Shown here: positions 13,856-62,024 of the stretch, piece after piece | Layout of the letters: each line of letters opens with the position of its first letter | Position numbering within the stretch: the stretch's first letter is position 1 | Virus record (IMG/VR): IMGVR_UViG_2049941000_000098 | Length of the DNA stretch: 64,000 bases | From: an uncultured virus (IMG/VR IMGVR_UViG_2049941000_000098) | Lineage: Duplodnaviria; Heunggongvirae; Uroviricota; Caudoviricetes | Direction: 5' to 3' (one strand) | Notes under the pieces: generated by a model | Told to the model about the DNA's origin: nothing | What the model saw: only the letters and a program-made list of their open reading frames with translations | Database searches by the model: none | Made by a program: the position numbers and the translations under genes

Positions 13856-14062
13856 TTAAGACCATCTGTTAATTTCACTCAATGCCTCACTCCACGCATT
13901 ATACGCTTGAAACATCAAATCAACCGCCTTTGTTGGAAATCCCAAACTATCCGCGTAATCCGCAAGATTTTGTATTTGGTCGCCCATCATTTCGGCACGT
14001 CCAATAAATCTTTCGGCTTCGGGGTCAAAACCCTCGTAATCATTATCTTTTATCCGTTTCAT
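13856..14062 (-). CDS. Small protein with MKRIKD leader
   Basis: 68-aa ORF. Confidence 0.65.
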   Translation of the reverse strand: MKRIKDNDYEGFDPEAERFIGRAEMMGDQIQNLADYADSLGFPTKAVDLMFQAYNAWSEALSEINRWS

Positions 14063-14344
14063 ACCCTTACTGTTTTTTAGATTTGTTATACATAATATTC
14101 AATATCTTGAGTCTCGTAATCTGCAAAATATTCATTATCATATTGTGCAACACTATCGGCAGGTATATACGCTTCGCCATCAAAATCAAAACGACCCTGT
14201 TTTAATATGTTTGATAATTCGTTTTGACCGTTACCATTCATAATAGCATCCGCTTCTTCAGGGGTGCAATCCAAACTAATACCGATACGCATCCATATCG
14301 TTCTGTTTTCGTTCATATCCTTACTGTTTTTTAGATTTATTGTA
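14060..14344 (-). repeat. 31-bp imperfect direct repeat (14060-14090 / 14314-14344) flanking a single gene
   Basis: tacaataaatctaaaaaacagtaaggatatg vs tataacaaatctaaaaaacagtaagggtatg, 28/31 identical. Confidence 0.9.
14086..14316 (-). CDS. Small acidic hypothetical protein (cargo between direct repeats)
   Basis: 76-aa ORF. Confidence 0.7.
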   Translation of the reverse strand: MNENRTIWMRIGISLDCTPEEADAIMNGNGQNELSNILKQGRFDFDGEAYIPADSVAQYDNEYFADYETQDIEYYV

Positions 14345-16478
14345 ATAGTTGTATTTAGTTCCGTAAATAAGAACCGAGCCTGACGGTACGACTTTCGGCA
14401 TAGTCGTCAGTCCCTCCTGTGCGAACATCGCGCCGCCCTCAACGCCCTCGTCCTTGATAAATTCAGGTACGTCGTCGCACACCCAACATTCGTCGGACAT
14501 CTTGCGTTTGTAGAATTTACTGTCGATGACACCCAGGTTGTTGGTTTTCGCCGCCGCCGAATAATAGTCGTCCGCAGGTACGCAATTGTCGGAAATGATT
14601 TTCTCGACATTTGCATCCTCGGCGTTCAATTGTTCCGCAACCTTTTCGCTTGAACCCATAATCGGAATCCAATTCTGTACCGTGCCGTTCTCACATTCCA
14701 CTTGGATTACGGGCGACAAATCACCATAGTTTACCGCCGCCGCCGACAAACATNNNNNNNNNNNNNNNNNNNNNNNNNNNNNNNTCACTGTCCGATATTT
14801 TGAAATTGTATTTTTTCAATATCGGTAATTTATCCTTCAACGCGTCGATAACCTTGTTGGCGCGTTTGTCACCGTTGACCAACAGTTTTGCCAACAAAAC
14901 AGCGTTGCGTTCGGAATCGTGGACGTTCAATTTTATTTTGTCAACCTTGTCCTTGTCCTCGTCCTCATCGTCCTCATCCTCGTCATCGTCCTCGTCGTTG
15001 AATATGTCTTCCGATTCACCGTTGTCAAGTTCGTCACCCTCGCCGCTTTCGGTTTCAATATCCATATTCAGGTTGTCATCACCCGATTCGTCACCGTTCA
15101 ATTCCTCATTAATCGATTTTTCTTCGGGGTTAATGTCGTCAACCGACAATTCCGACAGGGCTTCAAGTTCGGATGTGTCACCGTTGGCGAACGCCTCCAA
15201 TGCCGAACCCAAACTTTCAAGCAATGTTTTTCCGTCACCGCCGTTACCCGATTCCTCACCCAAACGTTCGTCGATTTGGTCGATAATGTCGTCTTTCACT
15301 TTCTGTGTGTGCGCCGATTTTTGCATCGATATTTCGGTCACGGAATGTGCGAACGCCCTGTCCATGCAATCTTTGACCCGCACGCGTTCGCCGCAACGTT
15401 TAGTGTAACGTTCGACAATATCGTTCATTGAATCACTTACATTCATCAGGCGACCGTTCAACATGTCGTCAGCAAGGTTGTATGCGTCGTCGATAATCAG
15501 GGCTTCCACGTCGTCAAACGATTCTTTCACCGTGTCTTCAACGCGTTTGCGTTCAATGCGTCGTTCGGGACGCGGGAATTGTTTTCGATTGTCAGCGATG
15601 CGTTTTGACGGTTGTGGACGCTTTCTTTGTGAATCACCGAGATTCAACTTGACATCGGGTGTTTCGTCTTCGGTTTCGTTATCCAAATCATCCCCGCCGT
15701 CAATATCCAAATCATCACCGCCGTCAACATCCAAATCGTCGGATTCGGGTTCGTCATCACCAACAACACCGTTATCTTCGTCGATGGTGTCACCGAACGC
15801 GATTGTCAACGCGGTCTGTAACGATTCGGTTTCAAATTTGTTATCCTCAAGAAAATCATATAGAATGTTCAACTCCTCTTCGTCGGCGGTCAGGTCAAGT
15901 TCGTTGTCGATGACCTTGTTGATTATGTCAATCACAGCCGCTTCCTGTGGGTCGCTTTCATTCAATATGTCTTTGTATGATTCCAACATACGCAGTTCGT
16001 CGTCTTTGCGCGAATACGCGTATTTTGTCAATAGGTCGTTGATGACATACAAATCCTGAATCTCGATTTTACGGTTCAAATCACGGCGTTCCAATTCGCC
16101 GCTATCCAAATCGTCACGAACCTTCACAGCGTTAAGGGCGCGTAACACCTTGCGACGTTCCCCGTCCGACAAACGCGACAGGAATTTGCGGCGTTCCGCG
16201 TTCCCCATATCCGCGATTTCGTCAATCGCGTGGCTGTCCAACACAATGTATTGTGTCTTTTGCGGACGGTCAACCTGTGTAATCCGTGAAATGCGTGACG
16301 GTTTGTAGTGTGACTTGTCGCTTATGCGCGACAATGTTTTATTGTTGTTTTTGATTGCGTTAATCGCGTCGTCAAGCACGGTTCTTTTTTGCCGCACGAC
16401 TTCAAGTCCGCGTGCAGAACCCTCGGTGCGTTCTTCACCGTTGCGGATTTTTACCAAACCTGTTAGAAAATCACTCAT
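14321..16478 (-). CDS. Large acidic protein, putative prohead scaffold/core protein (two ORFs joined across a gap)
   Basis: D/E-rich low-complexity tracts, DDLDxDGG repeats, many [KR][IV]xD motifs; own promoter. Confidence 0.55.
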
Positions 16479-21884: not shown

Positions 21885-22126
21885 GAACAATACCATTCCG
21901 TGTCAAACTCAATCATGGTCTGAAATTCGTCCGCGAACCAATTTTCACCCTCATACGATGTCAAACCCGAAAGGAATATCTGTTTAAACGGTTTTTTTTC
22001 ATCTTTGAATAGTGTTTCCCGAATCCCCACAACCTCTCGCTCACACATCACATAAGAACAATCCGTAACATATTCCATTCCGACCCACCAAACCTTTGTG
22101 CCAATCGGATGTTCAAATTCATTCAT
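21885..22126 (-). CDS. Hypothetical protein, 3' end in gap
   Basis: MNEFEHPIGTKVWWV... Confidence 0.55.
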
Positions 22127-22601: not shown

Positions 22602-22634
22602 AATTTATTTGTGTTTAAAAATTCCTTTTCAAAG

Positions 22635-22798
22635 TGGTTGTGGTTGGGGTCGCACCAACCTTGCGTTCCGATTGATTGTTGTTGTGATAGGATATAAAAA
22701 TCGGAAACCCCGTTTTGTTTTTCAAACGTTTTTGTTGTGCCATTGTGGAGTGTGCTTTTTCGGGGGCATTGCGGCTCTTAATCGCAATCTTTACAACC
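22635..22798 (-). ncRNA. Putative enlarged tRNA-like structured RNA (~164 nt)
   Basis: Terminal stem GGTTGT/ACAACC+A enclosing four hairpins: ATTGCG/CGCAAT, CCCCG/CGGGG, TTCCGATT/AATCGGAA and T-arm-like GTTGG-TGCGACC-CCAAC. Confidence 0.55.
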
Positions 22799-22966
22799 GT
22801 GTCGGGTGGGCGGCTTTTTGCAACCATATCTCTTGTTGGTTCGCCCACCCAAAAAACAAAGAACCCTATTTTTACGTCGTTTCGGANNNNNNNNNNGGAC
22901 GCACGGTTGTCAAGCCGTGTTACGGTCAGGAAAGGGTGTTAAGCCAAAACCTTCCGTATGGACGTG

Positions 22967-23038
22967 TAGTCGGTGGGGGAATCGAACCCCCATTACGAGA
23001 ATGAAAATCTCGTGTCCTAACCGTTAGACGAACCGACC
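22967..23038 (-). tRNA. tRNA-Glu (anticodon TTC)
   Basis: GGTCGGT/ACCGACT acceptor, CGAGA-TTTTCAT-TCTCG anticodon arm, GGGGG-TTCGATT-CCCCC T arm; no encoded CCA. Confidence 0.95.
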
Positions 23039-23244
23039 GTTTCTGTTTTCGCTTTGTTGTTTTTGCGGAAATCGCGAACCAAATAAAACAAAAACGCAAT
23101 CATAATGATTGTAACGAATATGTTTAACACGGGAACAAACCCCGCGTACCGTATAATGTTCCTGTTCGACCNNNNNNNNNNCGCCAAAAGGCAACCGCCG
23201 ACCCCGAAACCGTACAATATTGCGAATATCAATATAAACATCAT
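23017..23244 (-). CDS. Small membrane protein (3' end uncertain, overlaps tRNA)
   Basis: Two hydrophobic stretches; preceded by TACATTTG at 23270-23277. Confidence 0.45.
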   Translation of the reverse strand: MMFILIFAILYGFGVGGCLLAXXXXSNRNIIRYAGFVPVLNIFVTIIMIAFLFYLVRDFRKNNKAKTETVGSSNG

Positions 23245-23309
23245 CGTTCAATTCTTTTTAAATCGTTGGCAAATGTAATAATGTTTTTGTTACACGCAAC
23301 ATTTATTTT

Positions 23310-26300: not shown

Positions 26301-26789
26301 CGTATCTTCCTCGAAATAGTTTTCGGATTGGTTGGGCGTACTTGCGTACACGTCAATACTTTGGGATTCGTCTTCGGGGTCGGGCGTTTGTGCCTTATGG
26401 TCATCCGTGATATTTGTTTTTTTATATCCCCAAACACCATTATCCTTGTCCGAACTTTGAACCAAGTATGTGTGCGGTAACGCGACGTTTTTATTGACCT
26501 CCCGTATCTTCGCGCCATACAAACTTAACATACGCATGAATGAAACCAACGATATGTTTTCGGTTACATTCAGCCGCATCAAATCCCTTTTGTACGATAA
26601 TGACGCGTAACGGGGTTGCAGGTCATCCTGACTATCGGACAAAAGAACCAAACCGTTTTCCGTTTCCGCAATCAGATTGTCGTCATTTGCAACGTGGCAA
26701 TCATCCACGATGGAATCCAAATACAGTTTCCAATTCGGGTCGGCTTGTAACGCCTCAATAGTGTTGTTGTATAATGTCGTTTTCATCAT
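23310..26789 (-). CDS. Large baseplate/receptor-binding protein with C-terminal BspA/DUF285-like leucine-rich repeats; true stop uncertain after gap
   Basis: About 1150 aa; repeats MFKDCESLENI, AFKNCKRLRNLDLSG, AFDGCLRLENI, TFRKCHKLKS; coupled to the wedge gene. Confidence 0.7.
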
Positions 26790-29700
26790 TCAAAGTTTAT
26801 CGAGTTTTTATCCAAAACAAGGTATGTGTCGTCCTGTAGGTTCGGGGTCTTGCAATCGTATTTGATTGTGTCGATACTGATACCTGATTCATTCACAATC
26901 GTGTTGTTTTTATAATCAATCCAACCGATTGTCTTCGCCTGTGATGATAGTGTTTGCGTGTAAGTATATGTCGTGATTTTTTCATCAACCCACACTTTCA
27001 GGTAGTATGTGATACCAAGCGAACTGCTACCCATGTACGGCGCACCCGTAAGACGATAAGACAACCATTTTTTTAAATCCCTTGCTTCATTATCGTCACC
27101 ATACGCAATTGCGTCTATGATGGATGCAAAAGAATCAGTATTACGGTTATAGACTTCACCGCTGATTGTAACATCTCGTCCCTCGACAAATTTTGAAAGT
27201 TTCCCCCCTATGCCCGCGTTTTGGTACACGGACGAATCCAAATAAGCCATTACAATGGCTTCGGCGGAATAATCCATGTACTTTATTTGATGGTAACACT
27301 TTTTAGCGACATGCGGTGTCGGATTATTACCAAGTTTACTGTAACCATGGAATGTGGGTAGTGTTGCCCCTTTCTTTCCTTCGTAATCGGATGAAAAAAC
27401 AAATTCGTATTCGTCGTCGGGTGATTCCCNNNNNNNNNNNNNNNNNNNNNNNNNNNNNNNNNNNNNNNNNNNNNNNGCCATTAGATGTTTTATCGCGAAT
27501 AAAAACCTCACCCGTTTCAAGATTGTAACAATAAAAAACCAAAGAGGTTGTTGATTCATCCTCGACACGTTTATAAATGGTCGCGAACTCGCCCGTGCAA
27601 CTGCCAATCGAACATTCCGATATATCAACGTCGGCGAATATCTGTTTGATATTACGGAATGACATTTTGGATTCCGACAACTCATCGAATCCGTCACCGA
27701 CAAACACCTCGGTCGGTNNNNNNNNNNNNNNNNNNNNNNNNNNNNNNNNNNNNNNNNNNNNNNNNNNNNNNNNNNNNNNNNNNNNNNNNNNNNNNNNNNN
27801 NNNNNNNNNNNNNNNNNNNNNNNNNNNNNNNNNNNNNNNNNNNNNNNNNNNNNNNNNNNNNNNNNNNNNNNNNNNNNNNNNNNNNNNNNAATGATATGTT
27901 TGTCGAAACCGCGTTGTATCTCGATAATATTCAACGGGGTGTTGTAATCGCGATATGCGTTGTATGTCTTGATTTTCTGCTTGAATCCGCTGAATCCTTC
28001 AACCTTTGTTATTGAACGGTCAAAGATGACATAAACATTGTCACCGAACGGGATTATGCCACGGAACACTCCGTTCATTGGTATTGCAATGTCTTTGTTG
28101 CCACCCTTCAAAACATGCAATAACAACGTGCTGTCGGTTATCGAACTAATCCAATACACATTATCCTCATACACGAATAGATTGGATTTAATGTTGTGTT
28201 TGATGCCATTGTTGTCTATATTTTTCAAACCACTATAAAAACCCTTAAAATCCACCAAACCGTCACCCGTCCATGCCATATTCCAAGCGTCCGAACTTAA
28301 ATCCATCAGTGACGGTGACTGTTTCATTACCAACATGGTCTGATATTTTCCATCACCACCGTATGTCGTGTTCGCACCATTCAGATATTGTGAATAACCG
28401 TATGTGTTGTTCGGATTCCAATATTTATACGTGCTGACATGTTCGGTTGCTTCGCCCTCATCCGTGACCGTGCCTACCATTTTACCGTCATCGGTTTGTG
28501 TGCCTGAACTTTTATAAATAAAAATAGGAACAAAACAATCGTTAACCGACACAACCTCAAGGTCATACAAATTACCGANNNNNNNNNNCGTATGCCATGC
28601 GCGGTTAAAAATTGACGGGTTGGTATCTTGCATCAAAAGCATGTTCATGGTGTTGTCAAACGGCTTAATCATGTCGGTGCTTGCGTCATACAGATAGAAA
28701 CGGTTATATTTGTTACTAATCGGAACAACCACCTCCTCGTTGTACGTACTGTATGTTTTAACAACCGACGTACCCGCTTCGTTATATTGTTTCACACCGT
28801 TTTCGATTTCGTCTTCGGTTTTGATGTAATCCACTTTCATTTTCAACAGGAACATTTTTCCGACCGCACAAACAATCTCAAACATAAAGAACGGGATTGA
28901 TGTCGCGGACGTGTCCCGACCGTACAACAATCCATCATGTTCCCAAGCCACCAACGCACCGTTCGCGTCGTAACCCTTGAATGTGTTTTTAATCGGAACG
29001 TAACTTAACGGTTTGTTGTTCACAAAATCCTCGCTGACATTCATGTTGATTGACGGAACGATGCCGTAATGTGAATAAATCTCCGACAAAACNNNNNNNN
29101 NNCACCATACTGTTGAATTTCAGGTTTTCATACGCGAATGTCTGTTGCAACATATTCTTGATTCCGTTCTGTAAAATATCGTCTTTCACACCGCCGATAC
29201 TTAAACCGAATTTCAGTCGGTTGCCCGTCCGTACTTTGATATTCGGGAACAATACCGTGTTTAATGCAATGTGCGCGGCGATTTCCGAAAAATTCAAGTA
29301 CATTTCCAAATCCTTATCGGATGACGGTTTGATGTAAACATTCACGCCGCCGTTTTCTGATGCCACGCATTTTGAATCAATCACATAAGGAAGACTATTG
29401 ACGTACCGTTCCACCGATTTCGGGGTGTTCATGCCGTTATAAATCGACATTCCACCCTTCAGTTGGTTACGCATGTATTCAAGGTCGTCAACCGAACCCT
29501 GTGACGTGTATTTCACCTCAGCGACCACCGTATTACCATCCTTGACGGACATGTCCGATTCATCGAAATCGAACGCGTCGGGCGAATGGTCGATGTATTT
29601 GATTTGGTATGAATAAGGTTCGGTTGTGCCGTCCGAACAAATGAAACGGATATACTGTTTGCCGTCAACCGATGTGACAACCTTATACATAATGTCAATA

Positions 29701-32731: not shown

Positions 32732-33908
32732 AAATACCGTAAACGTAACCCGATGGTATTTGGTTCAGGTGTACCTCTTTCGCGATGTTTACCATTTCAC
32801 CGCAATAAGCACCGATACAGTTCAACGTAAACCGCTGACCGAACGCCGACACATATTCGCAACCCTGAACGAAAATAACAAATTTGCTACCCAAACACGG
32901 GTGCGTGCTGAAATATTCTTCAACTTTTTCCTTGCTATAATCCGCATTATAGTCAATCGGATAACCAATGACCGCCAAACAATTCTTACGGTATTCCGCG
33001 ATATTCTTTATGGCTGTGTCATACTCGGTAATCAACACCGTTTCTCCGTATTTGGCACTTACACTAACAAACGGATTGATGATTAACGTACATACGCTTG
33101 ATTCATAATCCTCGAATACGTCATAACCATTTTTAATTCCTGTTTTAAACGCCTCGGTAAACGAGTTAGATGTAAAGACCCCCGATTCATCATAAGTGTT
33201 GCATGCGTACACCACTTCATCAACATCCTCCTCGATGGTTATGTTGTCGGTTGCCATGACATCTATGAACATGCTATTACTAACAACGTTCTCAATAAAA
33301 ATGGATTCACCACCTATTTTGGCGGTCGGGTTAGCCGCACCCTCAAATGTTTCCAACAGTGTGTTGGTGTTATCCGAATTAACGCCATAAACATTGATTG
33401 TTATGATTGCGCCATCCGCATAATCATCCGAATTAGACAATGCGACACCAACCGATATGTTAGTATATCCGAAAGCAAGTGATTGTGGAACATAACCCGC
33501 ATATTTCAGGGCGATTGTGACCGCCTTTGTTTCATCATATTTTGTTGCGGATAAATTCAAATTGGTGCTTGTTCCCGACACCGTACCTGTTTTGTCTATT
33601 GTTAAGTTTTGGTATTTCCAACCATTAGACGGACGGTAAATCTCAACCTCGCCCGCGCCGTGTGAAAACGCATTTTTGATTTGTGCGTAACCCGAATACA
33701 AATCCGTGTTGGTGATATTATTAACACCAATGGGCAACGATTCAGGGAACATCTCGAAAAATTCGGTGCGTGTGTAAACCCTTGTCTTGTCCGATTCACC
33801 CCAATAAAACGGCATCACCATTCCGATGGTGTCCGTTGATGTTGTTGATGTATGGTTGGTCGCGTCCTGAAATTGAACGTCAATCAAATCTAAAACTGAT
33901 TTTGCCAT
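32732..33908 (-). CDS. Tail sheath protein, N-terminal part
   Basis: IGMVMPFYWGE, LLETFEG, IAEYRKNCLAVI, QIPSG; runs into a gap. Confidence 0.8.
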
Positions 33909-33972
33909 AATTCCGTTATTTAATATTTACAACTACGAATATAATGTTTTTTAATCAAATGGGAAATTTTGT

Positions 33973-34533
33973 TCAATCGGGAAAATTCGTCCCGAATTTT
34001 TGATTTACATATCCGAACCATTTTCGTACCGAATCAGACCATTCGTCTATTCCTTCGCTTATGGCATACGCTATATCATCGTAAAACCTACCCTTTTTAT
34101 CATCAATCAAATCACCGTCTTCATCAAGCCAATCCGATTCATCCCAACCCATAAAATCACATACTTCCGAATTACTCATTATGTCAGTGTCGGGTAACGA
34201 TTCGTAATCCAAATATTCAACATCTGTTGGTGCAAACTCAAACCGACCGTTCAATTCGTTGACATTATCTATCAGTGTTTCATATTGAGATTCCCAAAAA
34301 TCGAGGTTATAATGCACGCCCGACGAATGTATTTCGTGCCGTAAGTGTGACAGTTCCGCGACGGGTTCAAAAATGTTTTCATAATCGGCGACCATATCTT
34401 CATATTCGTCGTCATCTTCCGTCAGTCCGTCCTGTTGCGCGTAATATTCAGCCATAATTTCCAAATTATTAGCCGATTGACGGTACGCGTATTCCCTTTT
34501 GCGTTCGTAAACCTCCTTACTAAAATATGCCAT
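33973..34533 (-). CDS. Acidic hypothetical protein inserted in the tail module
   Basis: 186-aa D/E-rich ORF. Confidence 0.7.
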   Translation of the reverse strand: MAYFSKEVYERKREYAYRQSANNLEIMAEYYAQQDGLTEDDDEYEDMVADYENIFEPVAELSHLRHEIHSSGVHYNLDFWESQYETLIDNVNELNGRFEFAPTDVEYLDYESLPDTDIMSNSEVCDFMGWDESDWLDEDGDLIDDKKGRFYDDIAYAISEGIDEWSDSVRKWFGYVNQKFGTNFPD

Positions 34534-34537
34534 AGTG

Positions 34538-35152
34538 TCAAATATTTATCGGTGTCAACGNNNNNNNNNNTGTCGTGAACACCCCGATTTCGTTGTATAT
34601 CTGTGCCTCGGTGATTCCTTTCGGGTTGACCCAAATGTTGATTTTCTTAACCAACGTGTCACCGATGTCGTCCGTGTAATCCGACATGAACAATTGTGAC
34701 TGCCAACCGAAATCAACCCACCGCAACGCGCCCTTCGCGTCAGCCTGTGAACGGTCTTCCCCGATTCCGACGGACGTTAACCGAAACTGAACGTCAACCA
34801 CGTCCTGTTCGTCCTTTGTCGGGAAATGGATTGTGATGTACGGGTGTTTGGCTATACCGAACCGCAGTTTGCTTGCGATGGTTATCGCCTGACCTTGGTT
34901 TTCGACAAGTATTTTCCCCGTGTATTTTTGTTCGTATGACACAAACGCCGACCGTTCGATTCCGTCACGTATGACGAACTGTTTGTTGTTCGACCATTCC
35001 GCCGATTGGCGTTGGTAGAAGAACGCGGGGAATTTTGTGACCTCGCGCATCATTTCAAATATGTTGTCGTCGGTCGCGTATGTCGCGATTTTGATGTTCG
35101 GAAAAATCGAACTAATCAGATTCAATATGCCCGCCTCGTATTCGTAAATCAT
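34538..35152 (-). CDS. Putative tail terminator/neck protein
   Basis: Upstream of the sheath gene; FPAFFYQR; TATATTTG promoter at 35173-35180. Confidence 0.5.
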   Translation of the reverse strand: MIYEYEAGILNLISSIFPNIKIATYATDDNIFEMMREVTKFPAFFYQRQSAEWSNNKQFVIRDGIERSAFVSYEQKYTGKILVENQGQAITIASKLRFGIAKHPYITIHFPTKDEQDVVDVQFRLTSVGIGEDRSQADAKGALRWVDFGWQSQLFMSDYTDDIGDTLVKKINIWVNPKGITEAQIYNEIGVFTTXXXXLTPINI

Positions 35153-35181
35153 TATCCGTCATTTTAACACCCCAAATATAC

Positions 35182-35249
35182 AAAAAAAACACGAACCGTT
35201 TGTTGATTCGTGTTTTTGATATTCATTAACCGTTTGTTGATTCGTGTTT
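35182..35249 (-). terminator. Intrinsic terminator with a 22-bp tandem duplication of one arm
   Basis: aaaaacacgaa...ttcgtgttttt hairpin; aaccgtttgttgattcgtgttt at 35194-35215 and 35228-35249. Confidence 0.7.
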
Positions 35250-35252
35250 ATT

Positions 35253-35534
35253 TTAGTTTGTAAACCTCCAACCGTAACCACTGCGTTGTTGTGAACGTTC
35301 GTATGAATCCAAACCTTCATTGTATATTTCACGAATCATGTCCGCCCATTCTTCGACCGTGTAATCCTTAAATAATCGGGTTTCAATCGAATTGTCCGCA
35401 CGAAACAATATGTCGTTGGTAAAATCGTCGTCCGACCATACCGACACAAACCCCTCGGAAAAATTCAAAACCACATCCTTGATTCCTTCTTCGTTCAATA
35501 TGCGGCGCAATTTCGCGTTCCGTACATCCCTCAT
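35253..35534 (-). CDS. Small acidic hypothetical protein
   Basis: 93-aa ORF. Confidence 0.65.
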   Translation of the reverse strand: MRDVRNAKLRRILNEEGIKDVVLNFSEGFVSVWSDDDFTNDILFRADNSIETRLFKDYTVEEWADMIREIYNEGLDSYERSQQRSGYGWRFTN

Positions 35535-39021: not shown

Positions 39022-39802
39022 TGTCGCGTGCCTCCGCCTTTAAATATTCACAAAAATTTTTATATTCGGGAATAGTGAAATCAAGGAATGATTTGAAATC
39101 CAAATAATCACGAATCACGGCGTATTGCGCCACAAACGACGGAACGTCCGTCTTGACCCACGAGGAATCAAGTTCCATGTGGACGGTCGTGTCTTTGCCG
39201 CATTTACTACATTTGCATTTTTTCTCCAACACCATACCGTGTTTGTTCGCTTTTATGAATATGAAACAACTTACGTATATCGCCACGGGGATTGTGCTGA
39301 CCCACGCGATGTTTTCCTCTGTTATTTCCCGACCAAGCACCTTGCACACGGTCGCGTCCTCCACCATTTTGTCATGTTCCGTGTCGTCCAACGCGTATGT
39401 GTATATATCCACGCCGTCCGCCGCCGACAATACGTGATAGTTGTATTCGACACCCTCAAGAATTTTCTTACATTTTTTGAAATGTTTGTCGAGTGTGACG
39501 ACGGGGATGTCGTCAACACCGATTGTGAAACTGTCCCGAATCGGATTCCCGCACGCGCACGTAACGGTGAATTTCAGTGTATTGAACGAACACGCCGCCG
39601 CCGCCAACGAATAAAGATGTTCAACGTCGTCCATAGTGACCTTTTTCGGGTCAAATTCACACAGCCCACTTACAAATTCATACTTGAACAGGTAATCGTC
39701 GGTTGTTGCGCTTAACGCGCGTCTGACATCACCGTAATTGGGTTCGCGCATATCAACGTACCGCGTCCCCAACAAACCGTTGCTTGGTAGTATTATTTTC
39801 AT
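39005..39802 (-). CDS. Baseplate hub assembly/tail chaperone (T4 gp26/gp51-like)
   Basis: ILPSNG start, TCACG and CSKCG Zn-ribbon motifs. Confidence 0.6.
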   Translation of the reverse strand: MKIILPSNGLLGTRYVDMREPNYGDVRRALSATTDDYLFKYEFVSGLCEFDPKKVTMDDVEHLYSLAAAACSFNTLKFTVTCACGNPIRDSFTIGVDDIPVVTLDKHFKKCKKILEGVEYNYHVLSAADGVDIYTYALDDTEHDKMVEDATVCKVLGREITEENIAWVSTIPVAIYVSCFIFIKANKHGMVLEKKCKCSKCGKDTTVHMELDSSWVKTDVPSFVAQYAVIRDYLDFKSFLDFTIPEYKNFCEYLKAEARDNEQIS

Positions 39803-39814
39803 ATCTCATTGTTG

Positions 39815-40438
39815 TTATTGTTGTTTTTTGATTTTCGCGGGATTGTCACGATGTGCGTAATCGTCGAACAGGAACTCCTTGTATTTTGAAAACGACACGT
39901 TCGTTTTGTAAACAATTATGTCGTTGTTCGACGGGGACATCATGTATGTCGGATATGTGAACATACAATCGTACATTTCATACACGACCTTATTTGTGTG
40001 CAGATTCACGACAAACAGGGCGGGTAGATTCCAATCGTTTGTTTTGATTCGGAACGTGCCTTTAGCCGTTATCTGTTGGTTGTAATAGTAGTGAACCAAC
40101 GATGTGTATGTCTTGCGTGTTTTAATATCGTAATACGGGGTCGCGATATACCCGAAGTCAAAATCCTTGTTGAACGAAAAATCCGCCGTCGGGAAACCGA
40201 GTTTGTCTTTTGTCCTACCGAACCCGTTTCCCAACATTCCCGTACCGATATTTGTCACAATCAAATTTTGAAACATCGTGCTATCGGTCTGTATGTTGTA
40301 TTCGGGAACAATCACAATGGTATAATCGGATTGCAGGCTCGGAACAAACGCGGCATCACCCGCGCCGTTGATGTTGAAATAACTGTAATCCTCAATCAAC
40401 TGTTTGAAATTCGTCAATTGTGTGCCTACCAATCCCAT
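39815..40438 (-). CDS. Tail tube-like protein
   Basis: Position; VYEMYDCMF...VSFSKY. Confidence 0.45.
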   Translation of the reverse strand: MGLVGTQLTNFKQLIEDYSYFNINGAGDAAFVPSLQSDYTIVIVPEYNIQTDSTMFQNLIVTNIGTGMLGNGFGRTKDKLGFPTADFSFNKDFDFGYIATPYYDIKTRKTYTSLVHYYYNQQITAKGTFRIKTNDWNLPALFVVNLHTNKVVYEMYDCMFTYPTYMMSPSNNDIIVYKTNVSFSKYKEFLFDDYAHRDNPAKIKKQQ

Positions 40439-40447
40439 AACCGTCCG

Positions 40448-41185
40448 TTATAAATAATCAATAAAATTCCGTCCCGCAAGGTTCTTTAATCCGCCGCCCA
40501 ACCGTTTGAACGTGTCAGCCAAATCCTCGACCCCTTTTTCGCCTTTAAGTGCGCCGACAGCCGCGTTGGTCGCCTTATTTGCACTCCAAGCGGCGACCGT
40601 GTTCGCGATAACACCAGCCTCCAACGCTAACGGTCGGTGAACGTCGTTGACATCGTATGTCGTTCCCAATATGTTATCCTCCATGTCAATCGGATTCTTG
40701 ATACCATTGTACCTGAACGTCAAATCGAATTTCATCGGGGTTGTCGCACCCGACGCTTCCAATGTCAACGGTGATATTTTTTCAAGGTAACAATTCTGCA
40801 ACACACAACCCATTATCGGGGCTGTCCCCGTCACACCGTCCGTTACATATATGTATATGTCTTTATATTCAACGGTTGACAACTTGTTAAGTATGTCGTT
40901 TGTGACCGTTTCACAATGCTGTTTCCAAAGTGACTGATATATCGACGACATTAATATGTTTTCACCCAACGTACAACTCCACGTACCCTGTTTCTTCATT
41001 TTCACAGGGATTGAATACAACACGCCGCGAATCGCAATTGTTTTGGATTCAATCTCGCCGAACGGCAACGTCGTCCTTTCAACTACGAACGGCGACGTTA
41101 ATATCGACGGAATCCAAACAATGTAATTGCATGTCGGTTGCGGCGCGATACACGCCATTCTGAACATTGTTAGTTTTCGCGACAT
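40448..41185 (-). CDS. Tail tube-like protein
   Basis: GTWSCTLGE, VLQNCYL, FDLTFRY, similar to 41199..41741. Confidence 0.55.
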   Translation of the reverse strand: MSRKLTMFRMACIAPQPTCNYIVWIPSILTSPFVVERTTLPFGEIESKTIAIRGVLYSIPVKMKKQGTWSCTLGENILMSSIYQSLWKQHCETVTNDILNKLSTVEYKDIYIYVTDGVTGTAPIMGCVLQNCYLEKISPLTLEASGATTPMKFDLTFRYNGIKNPIDMEDNILGTTYDVNDVHRPLALEAGVIANTVAAWSANKATNAAVGALKGEKGVEDLADTFKRLGGGLKNLAGRNFIDYL

Positions 41186-41198
41186 ACATATTCATTCG

Positions 41199-41741
41199 TT
41201 ATTGTTCACCGAACGGATTAGGTGAACCCGCGTTGTTTTTCAGTTTGTTTTCAATCCATTGGTATTGAAACTCGTAATTCCAATCCACACTGCTTGTAAC
41301 ATCCTGTGTTTTCAAATCAAAACCGTCACGTCCTAACAACCAACAACCATGCAAAACAACCGAGAAAACAATGTTATCCTGCAAATCGCGATGGAACACC
41401 TCAACGTCATACCACGGTGTCGGTGTCAACACACCCGAACGTTGGTCGTACTGTTGGTCTTTCAAACGGTCAAGTTCACGGCACGTTTGCCCCCTGTCGC
41501 CTTCGGGTACGGTGATAGTCCACGTACCGCTTGTTTCAGGTTTGGCGGCGTATGTAATTTTTTCACCCTGAAAATATTTTTCCATTTTACGCAATTTTTC
41601 GGACGGAAACTTTGTTGATGACACAACCGTCAACACATTTTCGTCTACCTTGTCTGTCAGTGACGTGATGCGGATTTGGAAATTATAGATATTCAACGGT
41701 TGCGTGATGTAACTCGCGAATGTGTTTATTTTTATACTCAT
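41199..41741 (-). CDS. Major tail tube protein (gp19-like)
   Basis: SGTWTITVPE, VLHGCWL, YEFQYQW; follows the sheath C-terminus. Confidence 0.75.
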   Translation of the reverse strand: MSIKINTFASYITQPLNIYNFQIRITSLTDKVDENVLTVVSSTKFPSEKLRKMEKYFQGEKITYAAKPETSGTWTITVPEGDRGQTCRELDRLKDQQYDQRSGVLTPTPWYDVEVFHRDLQDNIVFSVVLHGCWLLGRDGFDLKTQDVTSSVDWNYEFQYQWIENKLKNNAGSPNPFGEQ

Positions 41742-41749
41742 AGCCTAAA

Positions 41750-41950
41750 TTATTTATAATCATTAAAATATTCCACCATTTCCTTTAAAGCACCGATATA
41801 CCCGCGTTCTGTCGCGTTGTTCGGGAAATACCGTTCGATTATCCCGTGGGATTCGTTCAAATCATTCACCAAACGTTTGATTAAAGACGCGGACGGAGCA
41901 ACCATCCATTCATCTTTGATTTTCCGTTTCACTAACTTTTTGAAATTCAT
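41750..41950 (-). CDS. Small protein with MNFKKLVKRKIKD leader, between sheath and tube
   Basis: 66-aa ORF from ATG at 41950. Confidence 0.6.
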   Translation of the reverse strand: MNFKKLVKRKIKDEWMVAPSASLIKRLVNDLNESHGIIERYFPNNATERGYIGALKEMVEYFNDYK

Positions 41951-41966
41951 ACCCAATCCCCCCCCG

Positions 41967-42433
41967 TTATGCAAATTCAGCCGTTACCGATGTGTCGGTG
42001 GCGATAATCTTAATCGACACGCGTTCCACCAATCCGATGAAGTGCAGACTTAATATGATATTCAACACCGTACCGCCTTTTGTCAGATAATCCGTATTGA
42101 TGGAATCCGAACAATCGGCGTATGAATCGGCGTGCAAATCCTGATTCGCGATATACGTGTCGATTATACTGTTCAGCATCGTTGACAACGAAGCGCGTGT
42201 AATCGGGTTCGATGCCGCGTCGGTGTGCAATGTTTCAATCGCAATCGGGAATATGTTTTTCAGCAACATCGTACAAACGCGCATCACGTTTATCTTCCCG
42301 AAGTAAGACGACTGACGGCTGTACGCCGTGCGTGTACCCCAAATAATATTGCCGCGTTTCGATGCGAACACGCTGTTGATACCTTTTTCCATAAGGTCGA
42401 TGACCTTACCCGGCCACTTCCGTTTTTATCCGT
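41967..42433 (-). CDS. Tail sheath protein, C-terminal part
   Basis: GINSVF...IIWGTRT...INVMRV...CSDSINT...VERVSI. Confidence 0.85.
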
Positions 42434-43561: not shown

Positions 43562-44398
43562 AATTGNNNNNNNNNNNNNNNNNNNNNNNNNNNNNNNNNN
43601 NNNNNNNNNNNNNNNNNNNNNNNNNNNNNNNNNNNNNNNNNNNNNNNNNNNNNNNNNNNNNNNNNNNNNNNNNNNNNNNNNNNNNNNNNNNNNNNNNNNN
43701 NNNNNNNNNNNNNNNNNNNNNNNNNNNNNNNNNNNNNNNNNNNNNNNNNNNNNNNNNNNNNNNNNNNNNNNNNNNNNNNNNNNNNNNNNNNNNNNNNNNN
43801 NNNNNNNNNNNNNNNNNNNNNNNNNNNNNNNNNNNNNNNNNNNNNNNNNNNNNNNNNNNNNNNNNNNNNNNNNNNNNNNNNNNNNNNNNNNNNNNNNNNN
43901 NNNNNNNNNNNNNNNNNNNNNNNNNNNNNNNNNNNNNNNNNNNNNNNNNNNNNNNNNNNNNNNNNNNNNNNNNNNNNNNNNNNNNNNNNNNNNNNNNNNN
44001 NNNNNNNNNNNNNNNNNNNNNNNNNNNNNNNNNNNNNNNNNNNNNNNNNNNNNNNNNNNNNNNNNNNNNNNNNNNNNNNNNNNNNNNNNNNNNNNNNNNN
44101 NNNNNNNNNNNNNNNNNNNNNNNNNNNNNNNNNNNNNNNNNNNNNNNNNNNNNNNNNNNNNNNNNNNNNNNNNNNNNNNNNNNNNNNNNNNNNNNNNNNN
44201 NNNNNNNNNNNNNNNNNNNNNNNNNNNNNNNNNNNNNNNNNNNNNNNNNNNNNNNNNNNNNNNNNNNNNNNNNNNNNNNNNNNNNNNNNNNNNNNNNNNN
44301 NNNNNNNNNNNNNNNNNNNNNNNNNNNNNNNNNNNNNNNNNNNNNNNNNNNNNNNNNNNNNNNNNNNNNNNNNNNNNNNNNNNNNNNNNNNNNNNNNA

Positions 44399-45157
44399 CT
44401 AAAAAAATACGATTTGTGAAATTATTTCCATACCCCCCTTGATATACAACATCCTGTGTGATTCCTTTTCCGACAGATTGAACCGTATTCGTGATTGGAA
44501 CGGCAACCACGTTTCGTTGTCGAATGAATATTCCGTCGGGTTTCCGCCCCAAACAATGTCGAGAACAACGTCTTTAGGCACAATCGGGGGTTCGGGTGTC
44601 GGTTCAGGTTCAACGTCACCGTCCCCGCCGTCACCGTCCGACGGTTTAACGTCACCGTGTTCATACACATTCAAATCGGGAATCGGTAACAGGGTGTCCC
44701 CGTCCAACAACGTAAGTTTGTATATGTTCAAAGGGTCAACAAACGTTGTCCTTTCGGGGTACACAATCAATTGAATCAAACCGCTAATGTCACGGTTCAT
44801 CGGTTTGACGTGATGTATCGTGTAAAGATTACCCTCGTGCAACAACATGTCGTCACGACGCGGCATACGCGGCAATCCCGTCATCGTCGTCAGCACCTCA
44901 TACGGTATCGCAGACTCTTTATCGTCCAACAGTTCGTCAGAATCGTCGGGGACGAACGTAAGTTCTTCCGTTTTGCGGAAAACCGCAAGTTTTTTGATAC
45001 GGTCAACCTCGGCGATACGGCTGTCCTGATAATGGTCAACCGACAAATCGTTGTATATGACGATTACTTCGGACGCGAGGGCGTTATGGGACAACTGAAT
45101 ATCAGCCATCCCAACCGCCATTGTCGATAATATGTCTCGCCTGTAATCGTGCCGCAT
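44399..45157 (-). CDS. Putative head-tail joining/neck protein
   Basis: PRRDDML...LYTIHHVKP; position upstream of the tail module. Confidence 0.45.
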   Translation of the reverse strand: MRHDYRRDILSTMAVGMADIQLSHNALASEVIVIYNDLSVDHYQDSRIAEVDRIKKLAVFRKTEELTFVPDDSDELLDDKESAIPYEVLTTMTGLPRMPRRDDMLLHEGNLYTIHHVKPMNRDISGLIQLIVYPERTTFVDPLNIYKLTLLDGDTLLPIPDLNVYEHGDVKPSDGDGGDGDVEPEPTPEPPIVPKDVVLDIVWGGNPTEYSFDNETWLPFQSRIRFNLSEKESHRMLYIKGGMEIISQIVFF

Positions 45158-45160
45158 AGA

Positions 45161-45523
45161 TTATTTACTTAACGAACGTTCAGCCTTGGTTTTGCCTGCA
45201 CACCGATAGTTGTATATTTATGATAAAACAACCGCATAACGACGTGAATCATCATCATCATCGTTATCATTAAATACTACCACATCTGTACGAGTATAGT
45301 CTGAATATTTCACCTCTTCAATATCTACATCAGATATTTCACGAGCGACCACCCTTCCTGCGTAGTCACCATAATCATATGCAAACTCAACCTCCATGTC
45401 TCCATCGAATTGTTGTAGTTCTTGTATCAATTCATCTACTGTCATAATTGTACGATTTTAAATATTTAAAAATTACTTTTCAATGACCGTTCAGCCTTTG
45501 TTTTCCCCGTGCGTTGGTAGTCA
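45161..45523 (-). repeat. Diverged direct repeat of a gene 3' end (45161-45211 / 45473-45523) flanking one gene
   Basis: Encodes NYRCAGKTKAERSLSK* vs DYQRTGKTKAERSLKK*. Confidence 0.85.
45218..45445 (-). CDS. Small acidic hypothetical protein (cargo)
   Basis: MTVDELIQELQQFDGDMEV..., AT-rich. Confidence 0.75.
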   Translation of the reverse strand: MTVDELIQELQQFDGDMEVEFAYDYGDYAGRVVAREISDVDIEEVKYSDYTRTDVVVFNDNDDDDDSRRYAVVLS

Positions 45524-45597
45524 ACCAACGATTTGCTGATTTTTTTCGCCGTCGTGCATGTCGCCGTAAGGCTTTTGTTTGTCGGATTCAATTTCAT
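45473..45597 (-). CDS. Small basic protein (~41 aa, not in ORF track)
   Basis: MKLNPTNKSLTATCTTAKKISKSLVDYQRTGKTKAERSLKK; ATGA-coupled; synonymous divergence from its duplicate supports coding. Confidence 0.6.
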
Positions 45598-46059
45598 AAT
45601 TCTTCGTCCTCCTCGCCGTTGTCAACATAACCCCAATCCAAACACCAATCGTAAAAATCATCTTTGTTCACCAATCGGCGTATGAAACCGTCACGGTTTT
45701 CCGCACTGCACGAATACCAACCGCTGTTGTACTCAATCACGTATTCATCCCAATACTCGAANNNNNNNNNNNNNNNNNNNNNNNNNNNNNNNNNNNNNNN
45801 NNNNNNNNNNNNNNNNNNNNNNNNNNNNNNNNNNNNNNNNNNCACCGCCACGAAGTTTGTCGCCGTCGTAATGCCCGCCGTAATATATCTTTTGGGCGAT
45901 TGATTGTACGATTTCGTCCTCCTCGTTTTCGGACAACAGATACTTTGCATCCCACATTTCGACGATACGTATGTTTTTCTTATCCTCGAGGTATTCAACA
46001 CCCCGTTCCGCCAACATCGCGTCGAAATCCCAACCGTTGTCTTTGATTCGTGTTCTCAT
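45594..46059 (-). CDS. Acidic protein with MRTRIKD leader, spanning a gap
   Basis: ORF 45745..46059 joined to ...DWGYVDNGEEDEEL. Confidence 0.6.
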
Positions 46060-46062
46060 AGA

Positions 46063-46473
46063 TTAAAATTCTTCGTCCACATTCTTGGCTTGTCCCCATT
46101 TACCGTTCTTTGGTCTGTAGTACGCCATGAATGTTCTTGTGTTCTTGTCGTAATCCACCTTTGCCAACAGCGCGTCAACACTTCCACCGATGTTAACTTT
46201 ATCAGGCAGGGTCAGTTTCACACCGCATACGTGTTTTTTACCATTGCCACCTTTAAGGTTGCCGCCGCCGACTTTAAGATAACCGTTGCCGTCAACTATT
46301 TTCCAAAACTCATTCTTAAAGGCTTCTATCGTTTCGTCAGGAAGTGCCTCGTCGGTGCGGTTGAACAGTGACGAACGCAACGAACCCGAACCGCCCGAAC
46401 GCATGTCGGAAACACGTTGTTTGCGCGAATCGCTCACCGCCTTCAGTTTTTTGTAATTGAAATTTTTAGCCAT
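46063..46473 (-). CDS. Basic protein with KAVSDSRKQRVSD leader
   Basis: 136-aa ORF; TATATTTG at 46499-46506. Confidence 0.7.
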   Translation of the reverse strand: MAKNFNYKKLKAVSDSRKQRVSDMRSGGSGSLRSSLFNRTDEALPDETIEAFKNEFWKIVDGNGYLKVGGGNLKGGNGKKHVCGVKLTLPDKVNIGGSVDALLAKVDYDKNTRTFMAYYRPKNGKWGQAKNVDEEF

Positions 46474-46516
46474 AATGATAAATATTTTAAATCAAACACA
46501 AATATACGGTTTTAAT

Positions 46517-59712: not shown

Positions 59713-60229
59713 TATTCGATTTTTTAGTTGTTTTTTTGTTTTGTTTCTCTTTTTCGTCAACCACCTCTTTAATAAAATCACCTGATGTCATATCAAAATG
59801 ACGGGCGGTTTTGTCAACTAATATCTTTTGCAACATTTTCGCCCACTTCGCATCATTGCAGGACGATATGTTCTCCAATATCGACACAACCTGAATCATA
59901 CAGAACGCGGATGCCGCAAGGTGGGGTAATTTCAAATCGGCGTAAACGAAACAGTATTTGTCGATACCTTGCAATAATAAAATGATTATTGAAATACCGA
60001 ACACCGTCCAACCCAACGATTTCAACCGTTGTGACTGAATCTTTCCGTGTGACACACCTTTGTACTTTTGCGCCACGCGGCGGTTTAACATATACGCCGT
60101 CAGGACATCAATAATTATCGAAGCGAATATCACATACATCACCTCTTCAAGCGGCTCGACGTATGCGGCGAACGCACCGATACCCGCAAAAAACATTCTA
60201 ATCAACCAATCGGACACTGCGTTGTGCAT
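59699..60229 (-). CDS. Holin
   Basis: Three or four hydrophobic segments, DVLTA, SILEN; overlaps the endolysin start. Confidence 0.8.
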   Translation of the reverse strand: MHNAVSDWLIRMFFAGIGAFAAYVEPLEEVMYVIFASIIIDVLTAYMLNRRVAQKYKGVSHGKIQSQRLKSLGWTVFGISIIILLLQGIDKYCFVYADLKLPHLAASAFCMIQVVSILENISSCNDAKWAKMLQKILVDKTARHFDMTSGDFIKEVVDEKEKQNKKTTKKSNNGTK

Positions 60230-60273
60230 AATCCTAATATTTTAATTCTATTTAACAATCTTAACAAACAAAA

Positions 60274-61018
60274 TTAATCATACGATATTGAAACCACAAC
60301 ATTGGGAACCTTCGTCTCTTTATATATTGCGTTAGCCATACTACGGACTCTGTTACCTAAACTCTCCGAACCACTATTGTCCATATCGTCAAGCACACCG
60401 TCTCGATAGTAACAAGTTGCGCCATAACTGTCTCCATACGCTTTAAAGTACCCGTACACACGAATCGTGTCCCTTTCAGTTACATCATACTCAAAGTAGC
60501 TCGCGTCTTGACCGCAGCTGTATAAAATATTTTTCAACTTGGACTTTAACGAGGTCATTTGACTCTTATCCAAGTAATTCCCCATTTTCTTATTAAACTC
60601 TTCCCGTATACCGTCAATGACGTCCTGTGTTATGTAATTTTTGTAATACTTAATGAAATCGGGTTTGTACAACTCAAAGTCTTCGGAATTTATTCTTTTT
60701 TCTTTTCCCGTNNNNNNNNNNCACAACATCCTTTTTAAAGTTTAAAAACCATCCCGTTCCACTCGCTTCTGTGCCAAGTTCAAAAAGTATACTAACACGC
60801 CGTGGTTCTTGCTGTTCAAAGCAAATCTTAAACCCCAAGGATTTACCATCCCCAAGCGGTACTTTGTCAAAATAAGCCGCTACAAGCTTCCACTGTGGGT
60901 AGTCGGTATAAATTGCCGCCGAATAGTCGCCGCGCTGAACTTTCTTAAGCAAAATATTAAACTGCTTCTCAGCCTCGCTCTTAGCGTCCTTAACCCTCAT
61001 TAATCTCTTTAAATTCAT
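60274..61018 (-). CDS. One or two hypothetical proteins (MNLKRLMRVKD leader) split by a gap
   Basis: ORFs 60674..61018 and 60274..60729. Confidence 0.55.
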
Positions 61019-61136
61019 AGCCTTTATATTTTTTAATAATACTTTTCTCCATTTACAGTCTCAATATCTAACGATNNNNNNNNNNNNNNNNNNNNNNNNN
61101 NNNNNNNNNNNNNNNNNNNNNNNNNNNNNNNNNNNN

Positions 61137-61372
61137 TATATTGCAGCATACTCGGTAACCGCTTGAACCGTGTAGGTTTCGTTCATACCCTCGTAACCAA
61201 GACTGACCGTTACGCTAAACCTGCCGTCGCGCACCCAATACACGTCCTTCGCAATCAAAAGGTCTGTCGCAAGCTGTAGCGCGTGCTCCGCCGCCTCATC
61301 CTCGTTCCTTGCATCTACGTCAAGGCTAAAAATGCCGTGAACTCCAAACATTAAACCTACCTCGTATTTCAT
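61137..61372 (-). CDS. Small hypothetical protein, 3' end in gap
   Basis: MKYEV...VDARNEDEAAEHA; ATG at 61372. Confidence 0.55.
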
Positions 61373-61388
61373 AACTCTAATATTTAAA

Positions 61389-62024
61389 TTATTTAACAAT
61401 CTCCACAAACCTTTGTTTCCTAACACTTGAATACGGGTTCGCGTCCACCACATCAATTTTCACCACGGTTTGTTTCTTCTGAAACCAGCGAATAAAAAAA
61501 ATCTTTGACGGTGGTTTTATCGTTTGTTTTTCACCCGACACAATCACGCTTAACTCGTTGTTGAACGTGGATTCCACATCTATTTTGTTCGGGTATTTAA
61601 GTTTCAGGTTCAACACACGCCACCTGTCCGCCAACGTCGTATCTACATTAACGTCGTAATTGAAAATGGTGTCGGTGAAATATATCGAATCGTGTGTTGT
61701 GGTTTGGGTCAATATGTATTCAAGACGTTGGATGTTTTTGTCTTTTATTTTTAGTTCCTTACGGAGTTCGTTCAAATTCCGAATGATACTATCGTTGGAA
61801 TATTCCAACATTTCCTTTGTAAGTTTCAATTCGTAGTTTTTCCCGTTGACGGAATCAAGTTTCGCTGTCACCATTTGTTCATACGCCTTGTAGTTGTTCA
61901 TCGCAAGGGAATAATCGGTTTGAAGATGTTTGTTTTTAGCCAACAGAAAACCGATATACAACACCATCGCGACGAATACTATCGCGATAATCAACGCCAA
62001 TTTGTTTTTTATGTATTCCAACAT
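61389..62024 (-). CDS. Spanin-like lysis accessory protein
   Basis: N-terminal TM helix, coiled coil, FFIRWF...NPY C-terminus; heads the lysis operon after TATATTTG at 62049-62056. Confidence 0.6.
   Translation of the reverse strand: MLEYIKNKLALIIAIVFVAMVLYIGFLLAKNKHLQTDYSLAMNNYKAYEQMVTAKLDSVNGKNYELKLTKEMLEYSNDSIIRNLNELRKELKIKDKNIQRLEYILTQTTTHDSIYFTDTIFNYDVNVDTTLADRWRVLNLKLKYPNKIDVESTFNNELSVIVSGEKQTIKPPSKIFFIRWFQKKQTVVKIDVVDANPYSSVRKQRFVEIVK

Follow-up and report, generated by a model that had tools for sequence, protein, structure and literature searches.

The 64,000-nucleotide stretch of DNA analyzed here (the window), IMG/VR record IMGVR_UViG_2049941000_000098 of an uncultured member of the Caudoviricetes, contains what is best read as the scar of a single-gene gain. 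A 75-residue cargo gene (45218..45445) is enclosed between a small, intact basic gene (45466..45597) and an orphan fragment (45161..45211), which repeats the end of the small gene in the form of another allele. The favored explanation, to which a probability of roughly 0.6 is assigned, is a moron-type gene gain by unequal, illegitimate crossover between related phages, the orphan being the scar of that recombination. Mechanistically the event is ordinary; its scar is legible, and the pattern recurs within the window. The joints of mosaic phage genomes are rarely legible, whereas in this case the joint can be read to the base.

Two copies of a gene end from two alleles

All of the genes at the locus are encoded on the minus strand. 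Read in that direction, they comprise a partly masked gene (45594-46059), the small gene, an AT-rich spacer of 20 nt, the cargo gene, six bases, the orphan, three bases and a conserved gene of 252 residues (44399..45157), which begins with ATG and shares 87% amino acid identity with its counterpart in L001, the nearest relative found. The ATG of the small gene overlaps the stop codon of the preceding gene (ATGA). The small gene encodes 43 residues, MKLNPTNKSLTATCTTAKKISKSLVDYQRTGKTKAERSLKSNF, with the tail ...GKTKAERSLKSNF (...SLKSNF; all protein tails are given up to the stop codon), while the orphan reads NYRCAGKTKAERSLSK, lacks a start codon and ends 3 nt before the ATG of the 252-residue gene. 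The initial annotation, made from the sequence alone, had correctly recognized a basic gene upstream of the cargo, but its length of about 41 residues and its tail of ...SLKK did not stand; the cargo gene was placed, and the orphan behind it read, as they are here.

Both copies include a 27-nt core that encodes GKTKAERSL, at 45481..45507 in the small gene and at 45170-45196 in the orphan, and these two direct repeats are 311 nt apart (26 nt at 85% in the repeat scan). The cores differ at five sites, all in the third codon position and all silent (ggg/ggc, aca/acc, cgg/cgt, tca/tcg and ttg/tta), exactly as originally described. The flank-repeat score of the unit, 16, was reached in none of 200 shuffles. 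When the small protein was compared by tblastn with the whole window, the orphan was the sole second match (E 0.007; next best 0.96).

The pattern of silent differences is difficult to obtain by decay. Among the 81 possible single substitutions in the core, 20-21 are silent, and when five random substitutions were simulated in the 27 nt, all nine residues were kept in 0.04-0.14% of the cases. Given 17 differences over 48 nt, a run of at least nine identical residues with at least five silent differences appeared in 0 to 0.006% of the simulations. The hypothesis of an identical duplicate that decayed neutrally is rejected (P about 0.0004-0.0014). A history in which all five changes arose in the selected upstream copy was also discarded as not credible: more than half of the third positions of that copy would have changed, with the unselected orphan untouched over 11 codons.

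The full-length allele P0152 ends ...GKTKAERSLSK, an exact match to the tail of the orphan. Because silent-only differences are improbable by chance, and because the P0152 tail equals that of the orphan, a derivation of the two copies from two alleles is supported. The simulations and P0152 also uphold the earlier claim that both copies evolved as coding sequence and that the orphan is not a decayed target-site duplication.

The small gene is retained as a gene of 40-45 residues at the same place in L001-L004, in L006 and in 13 database alleles. In L006, a very distant relative, a 45-residue basic gene occupies the same place behind capsid-side genes, indicating that the small gene is an old, conserved member of the structural module. 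The natural tails of the 13 further alleles vary (...AERGLKK, ...NERNLKKQ, ...NERSLKSK, ...AERSLSK). One of these alleles, P0158, ends ...SLKSK, with which the ...SLKS of the upstream copy agrees as far as, but not including, the last codon. The tail ...KSNF is confined to the window and P0163; the latter is located on a 16,632-nt contig, and the 75-residue cargo form P0165 is likewise on a 16,632-nt contig. Another small-gene allele, P0156, ends ...AERSLSNKHN, i.e., with an orphan-type ...SLS tail followed by four odd residues, and could result from another insertion whose joint lies at this same codon.

Filled and empty sites

The filled site was recovered in contigs from three studies, which bears on the question of continuity that had been raised with the original description. 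Run X1, which may be the source sample, has a 1264-nt contig that covers 44420-45632 with no differences. In X5, from a different study, a 542-nt contig spans 44940-45472, including the orphan and the whole cargo gene, with six differences and nine gap letters. In X6, a sheep sample from a third study, two contigs cover 44420-45243 and 45296-45760 and are broken only at the GAT-repeat of the cargo gene. The filled arrangement is real and stable across the three studies (two bovine, one sheep). An assembly artefact or a chimeric contig, in favor of which the many masked stretches of the window and the shortness of the duplicate could be cited, is scarcely credible in the face of this recurrence and of a unit that, as first noted, contains no N (the nearest N runs are at 43567-44397 and 45762-45842).

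The insertion is polymorphic. The cargo gene is absent from the locus in all four of the relatives found (L001-L004), and homologs without the cargo thus exist. L001 belongs to a complete IMG/VR genome of 142,338 bp with terminal repeats (G001), in which no homolog of the cargo was found anywhere at E<=10. In L001, the small gene (...TDYHRTGKTKNERNLKKQ) runs with its stop codon into the GTG of the gene that follows. In L002-L004, whose neighboring protein is 55-59% identical, a homolog of 41 residues (...KYNLTGKTKAERSIKK) is followed by a spacer of 77-95 nt, in which a GC-rich hairpin and a T run are recognized by eye. Pairwise alignment of the window with L001 yields a single long gap of ~311 nt, placed inside the core.

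The small gene of X6 carries five differences at 45550-45564 (one A-to-K replacement and three silent changes; codon mapping by hand), and the same five differences occur in contigs of unrelated relatives in X1 and X9. This common patch indicates that alleles of the small gene are exchanged in nature.

The gene-start motif and the two junctions

The cargo gene is led by a gene-start motif, TAAATATTTAAAAT (45455..45468, minus strand), which is located 9 nt before the cargo ATG and contains the stop codon of the small gene. Eight matches to the motif, at two mismatches or fewer, are present on the gene strand of the window. An ATG lies 8-10 nt past the motif in six of the eight (at exactly 9 nt in five), compared with a mean of 0.07 and a maximum of 1 in shuffles. 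The G001 genome contains six matches versus none for the reversed control. This recurrence at gene starts in both genomes indicates that the cargo uses the phage group's own gene-start signal. Sites resembling TAA(A/C)(A/T)ATTTAAAAT, 8-9 nt ahead of ATG codons, have their first bases at 61395, 58640, 45468, 43053, 35844 and 3505 on the minus strand, and at 43053 and 58640 the conservation extends to ~40 nt (..TTGGAATTTGTT-motif-TTTAGA..). The last six bases of the motif double as the -10-like hexamer of a promoter-like site, TTGAAA-17-TAAAAT (45483..45455, minus strand), recognized by consensus only. The motif may be a promoter, predicted to give nearly leaderless transcripts.

At the right junction (45212..45220, minus strand), the cargo stop TAA and the four bases ATAT that follow it repeat the first half (seven bases) of the motif; then come AC and the orphan. 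Neither a terminator-like site nor a stable fold was detected behind the cargo gene. In contigs of relatives (X1 record 5 and X9 record 20), the small gene ends ...LKK, and within a few bases a motif-like TAACAATT... follows (loose ends, read by hand). To the left of the cargo the boundary has a native look, because the motif precedes the ATG by 9 nt, as at five other gene starts in the window, and because the ends in these relatives carry a motif-like TAACAATT. An illegitimate joint is suggested only on the right (TAAATAT-AC-orphan).

These junctions bear on the idea that a boundary of ~50 nt was duplicated in situ within one genome, after which the upstream copy was replaced by a diverged allele through homologous exchange. 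The exchange of small-gene tracts among cargo-bearing genomes, as seen in X6, and the many alleles in circulation would supply the second step. The scheme nevertheless requires illegitimate joining at two places and a later conversion that terminates, on its right, within the last ~50 nt of the gene, and it sits poorly with a left side that resembles a native boundary of gene end and motif; it is considered quite improbable.

The orphan is in frame with the cargo gene, directly past its TAA and with no start codon between, which raises the question of its translation. Readthrough of the TAA, the sole stop between the two, would add a basic tail of 18 residues to a fraction of the cargo protein. 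The last 11 orphan codons are without replacement, and the only difference in the orphan across the contigs of the three studies, at 45176 in X6, is silent in this, its old, frame; the X6 contig on the orphan side differs at 23 of 824 sites overall, too little to show constraint or decay. An in-frame placement, however, has a one-in-three chance, and in the second instance of the pattern described below (at 14090) the orphan is in another frame than its cargo. All three members of the cargo cluster, and the family members that were read, end ...VVLS or in a close variant, and TAA is the commonest stop in the window, terminating 41 of 70 long open reading frames (ORFs). Readthrough, which would have contradicted the initial annotation, is very improbable on this evidence. 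As for structured RNA, no Rfam match was obtained at E<=1 in 44900-45760, and the fold of 45140-45240 had a z score of +1.36.

The cargo gene and its family

The cargo gene encodes an acidic protein of 75 residues that belongs to a phage family without known function. The GC content is 0.29-0.41 over the unit versus 0.45-0.56 in the flanks. The protein matches phrog_5861 (function unknown) with an E value of 3e-8; a further, weak PHROG match of 34 residues was to a 55-position profile labelled HNH (E 0.004), and no family was found in Pfam. A full HMMER search gave 334 representative clusters at E<=1e-3. Most of the relatives that were looked at are free-standing proteins of ~75 residues with the pattern MTV.ELI..L...D.D.EV.F.Y.YGD......, ending ...VV.LS. 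Three cargo variants of 75-78 residues, which differ in the length of an Asp run, are present in the protein collection, and each of them ends ...VVLS. Among the 50,697 GenBank phages, tblastn of the cargo protein gave one weak match, to a Vibrio phage, and no close relative was found in IMG/VR.

The AlphaFold model of the cargo protein (pLDDT 89.5) consists of one helix and five strands. With this model, Foldseek gave no match in the PDB at E<=0.001, VIA-align gave no chain at Z>=2 among 48,161, and BFVD gave one match at E<=0.001, the top matches being unnamed or uncharacterized viral proteins. The look-alikes in the Atlas are all viral clusters of the "hypothetical protein" type.

The surroundings of cargo relatives were surveyed in IMG/VR, where 110 of 117 candidate stretches encoded relatives and 80 loci were kept. 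In 22 of the 80, the relatives were bracketed by direct repeats (score of at least 14; the median of the highest shuffle scores was 10). The left repeat was outside any upstream reading frame of at least 40 codons in 20 of these 22 loci, and the repeats that were read hold TATAAT-like and AGGAG-like boxes. Judged only from the positions of its relatives in other phages, the cargo would be an accessory early or host-interaction protein.

The same architecture elsewhere in the window

When downstream copies of the final residues were sought for 252 reading-frame ends, the focal pair was recovered, together with a pair at 14321/14090. In this second instance (14046..14365, minus strand), a gene of 76 residues (14086..14316) is enclosed in a 33-nt repeat, 30/33 identical, that comprises the last seven codons of the upstream gene, its stop codon, 4 nt and ATGAA. 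Both of the coding differences are silent, and the stop codon of the cargo is inside the orphan copy. At the corresponding site, G001 has one copy of the repeat and no homolog of the 76-residue gene.

The third instance (60212..61430, minus strand; score 16, reached in 0 of 200 shuffles) is a three-ORF insertion of 1158 nt relative to G001. Its flanking copies consist of the last six codons of the upstream gene (FVEIVK and FVKIVK) and the stop, followed by the motif, 9 nt and an ATG. The site is empty in G001 (L090, 5268-5340), in which only two bases separate the stop after ...FVEVVKEK from the ATG of the orthologous downstream gene. With three such scars in 64 kb, a rule suggests itself, by which an insertion between abutting genes is viable when the boundary is retained on both of its sides.

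Two other pairs, both among the five top hits of the scan of gene ends, were rejected as scars. The pair 21765/20522 represents paralogous N-terminal regions read in the wrong frame. The genes concerned (19577-20608 and 21689-22126, minus strand, partly masked) share a near-identical stretch of 42 nt (38/42 by hand count) that encodes LLPYINITIIKWRL near their starts; the three differences identified in it are silent, and the genes look like paralogs. The pair 9774/9190 represents neighboring proteins with a common C-terminal region of 32 residues (15/32 identical). These two proteins (9152-10163, minus strand; 9410-9761 masked) share the tail ..G(F/L)ALPAPD(E/G)MYN(D/F), with many silent differences, and TAAATAAT(T/C)AAAAC comes after each of the tails. 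Here, a copied gene end may at an earlier date have been taken over as the functional C-terminus of a neighboring gene.

The recurrence also raises the possibility that the unit is itself mobile, in the manner of the PeSL (promoter-plus-stem-loop) cassettes of T4-type phages. The 311-nt unit would then loop out between the gene-end copies and re-enter relatives by a single homologous crossover in the end of the small gene, a behavior regarded as conceivable but unlikely. Equally doubtful is the corresponding role of the duplicated gene end as a working recombination site, excision at which would restore an intact small gene. The borders of the unit coincide exactly with the direct repeats, and its loss by excision in the core would yield an open reading frame for the small gene that ends in the natural ...SLSK tail. 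The pattern is found three times in the window, cargo homologs are flanked by repeats in the 22 of 80 loci mentioned above, and the literature on T4-type PeSL cassettes documents mini-circles and reinsertion between short repeats (PMC2839356). The repeats of those 22 loci, however, are intergenic promoter or ribosome-site repeats and not gene ends, and homologous recombination would be poorly served by a core of 27 nt in which five bases are mismatched. Only three members make up the cargo cluster, and none of the 10 members listed for the two closest small-protein clusters is the predicted excision product. The contigs of four runs showed neither a joint nor an empty site, although contigs cannot show rare or circular forms; matches of 37-41 nt from unrelated contigs, at ~80% likeness, were set aside as chance.

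A broader conjecture, speculative and rather improbable, is that in this group of rumen phages duplicated boundaries (the last 6-16 codons of an upstream gene and the next start signal) are the working sites of an enzyme-free shuffling of cassettes, in which small motif-led genes would loop out as mini-circles and re-enter relatives at the homologous gene end. Every excision would restore an intact gene, and displaced ends would be captured occasionally as cargo C-termini. Such capture is hinted at by the common tails at 9152-10163 and by the focal orphan, which is in frame with its cargo.

A proposed route of gene gain

Under the favored explanation, gene gain by unequal crossover, the donor would have been a rumen phage carrying the small gene, the gene-start motif of the group, the 75-residue cargo gene and a second copy of the motif. 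A co-infecting relative would have carried the small gene abutting the 252-residue gene, as in L001. The crossover would have joined DNA just past the cargo stop, at the second motif copy (TAAATAT), to approximately codon 26 of the small gene of the relative. The product would be one whole small gene of one allele, the motif-led cargo gene and, from the other allele, the final 16 codons, a fragment now presumably untranslated and placed directly before the 252-residue gene, for which it might serve as the upstream region. Differences of the silent kind alone would be seen because the copies had diverged as working genes in two lineages. Where genes abut or overlap, an insertion would be viable only with two copies of the boundary, of which one finishes the upstream gene and the other provides the upstream region of the downstream gene. 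Of such repeats, only short and diverged ones would persist, since long identical repeats would delete the insert.

A single unequal crossover is the most economical account. It would explain the intact upstream gene, the native-type start signal and the silent-only differences between the alleles, as well as the position of the orphan 3 nt before the next ATG, where L001 has a real gene end. The identity of the resident parent does not follow from it.

Several observations weigh against this account. The two flanks of the unit are similarly close to L001 (identity 0.75-0.85), with no breakpoint signal seen, and the core of each copy agrees with L001 at 17 of its 27 bases. Over the five codons that precede the core, it is the upstream copy that is nearer to L001 (12/15 versus 9/15, by hand count), which is the opposite of what would be expected of an orphan derived from the resident, unless these codons have decayed. 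A donor was not found; beyond its own cluster, the cargo has relatives of 54% identity at best. Relative to G001, five clean window-specific insertions were observed (G001 gap up to 96 nt), and significant flanking repeats were detected in only two of them, the focal unit and 60233-61392 (0/200 shuffles each).

The orphan itself has also changed unevenly, which plain neutrality does not explain. Its first five codons (NYRCA, versus DY(H/Q)RT in close alleles) differ by transitions at first and second positions and break T30, which is invariant in all 16 aligned alleles, while the next 11 codons are free of replacements. Were four replacements distributed at random over 16 codons, the probability that all would fall in the first five is 5/1820 (post hoc, hand arithmetic). 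Possibly the distal part decayed and the 36 nt beside the ATG of the 252-residue gene were retained as an upstream region; mutations introduced together during the joining, or an allele that is itself unusual, would account for NYRCA equally well.

The locus shows one way in which a single accessory gene enters an operon of abutting or overlapping genes, namely with the boundary present twice, from two alleles. An orphan gene end behind a small gene may serve as a simple sequence mark for recent gene gains in uncultured phages, and the 311-nt unit is a concrete object for testing the role of short gene-end repeats in excision and spread. The cargo, as a member of a large, uncharacterized and confidently folding family, is a reasonable candidate for functional screening. 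The mobile-cassette reading would, if true, be of greater interest, for the repeats would then be working sites of excision and insertion.

The phage and its relatives

Tail sheath, tail tube and tail/virion proteins are among the PHROG matches of the window, identifying it as phage DNA. Nearly all of its long ORFs are on the minus strand, 8% of its length is masked, and three glycosyltransferases are encoded immediately upstream of the locus. The stretch is present in public gut metagenome runs from cattle, sheep and goats. Neither blastn of 44400-46500 nor tblastn of the 252-residue protein gave a match among the 50,697 GenBank phage records, which, by DNA and protein comparison, contain no cultured relative.

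G001 and the window are collinear at 67-86% nucleotide identity, save for one short matched block. The order of two blocks differs: 32737-35534 of the window corresponds to 24974-27234 of G001, and 39029-42405, with the sheath and tube genes, to 21594-24931, the two being swapped relative to the 252-residue gene. A scan of genome contigs with the 252-residue protein gave nothing, and the only contig found with the small protein was L002. This relative (also L087) is a 2896-nt phage contig binned in a metagenome-assembled genome titled Paludibacteraceae (Bacteroidota), which is a weak hint to the host group and is consistent with the lack of Shine-Dalgarno sequences in front of the genes that were read.

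Comparison with known systems

The closest concept is that of the moron, due to Hendrix and co-workers, which is a supernumerary gene, equipped with expression signals of its own, at a place where relatives have two neighboring genes side by side. The focal cargo is likewise one extra gene between genes adjacent in all four relatives, with a lower GC content and a promoter-like or gene-start signal of its own. Unlike a typical moron, it has no terminator behind it, its start signal is that of the phage group, and it is accompanied by a legible gene-end scar.

Displacement of a gene end is familiar from Rhs, contact-dependent inhibition (CDI) and type VI secretion system (T6SS) loci and from the integration of e14 and phage 21 into the 3' end of icd, in which the incoming segment supplies the gene end and the old end is displaced downstream. 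The focal unit differs from these in having no toxin-immunity pair, integrase or att core, and in its dimensions (an orphan of 51 nt in a unit of 311 nt). Three further classes of element were considered and set aside. For a transposon or insertion sequence, no inverted repeat was present at the unit ends among the 21 pairs listed, the 75-residue cargo contains no transposase family, and neutral decay from identity is rejected. Integrase-mediated integration into a 3' end is at odds with a unit that holds a single ORF of 75 residues, and a group I or II intron or another structured RNA with the lack of an Rfam match and of a stable fold.

A similar arrangement has been described in fungal mitochondria as mORF hybrids, in atp6 of Allomyces and in atp6, atp9, cox2 and nad3 of Glomus (PMC3630166). 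In these hybrids, a gene continues into a diverged C-terminus, followed by an inserted ORF and then by the displaced original C-terminus, as in the window. The ORF of the mORF hybrids is an endonuclease that drives mobility, in contrast to the focal cargo, which has no nuclease family or fold in Pfam or the PDB and only the weak HNH-labelled match. In a hybrid of this type, the displaced end would be expected to be nearer to the sister genome than the in-phase end. In the window, each core agrees with L001 at 17/27 and the five prior codons at 12/15 in the in-phase copy versus 9/15 in the orphan (hand count).

The PeSL and ORFan cassettes of T4-type phages consist of a small ORFan between promoter-plus-stem-loop repeats (Arbiol et al. 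2010, PMC2839356). Compared with these, the focal repeat is distinct in being the coding 3' end of the upstream gene, in having no stem-loop and in presenting the full motif only before the cargo, with seven bases of it after. In both systems, a small ORFan is located between short direct repeats, is led by a conserved regulatory motif and is absent from a close relative that keeps one copy of the repeat. The cargo homologs of other phages are located between repeated regulatory elements in 22 of the 80 loci, much as in the small-gene arrays with repeated promoters that the same paper presents.

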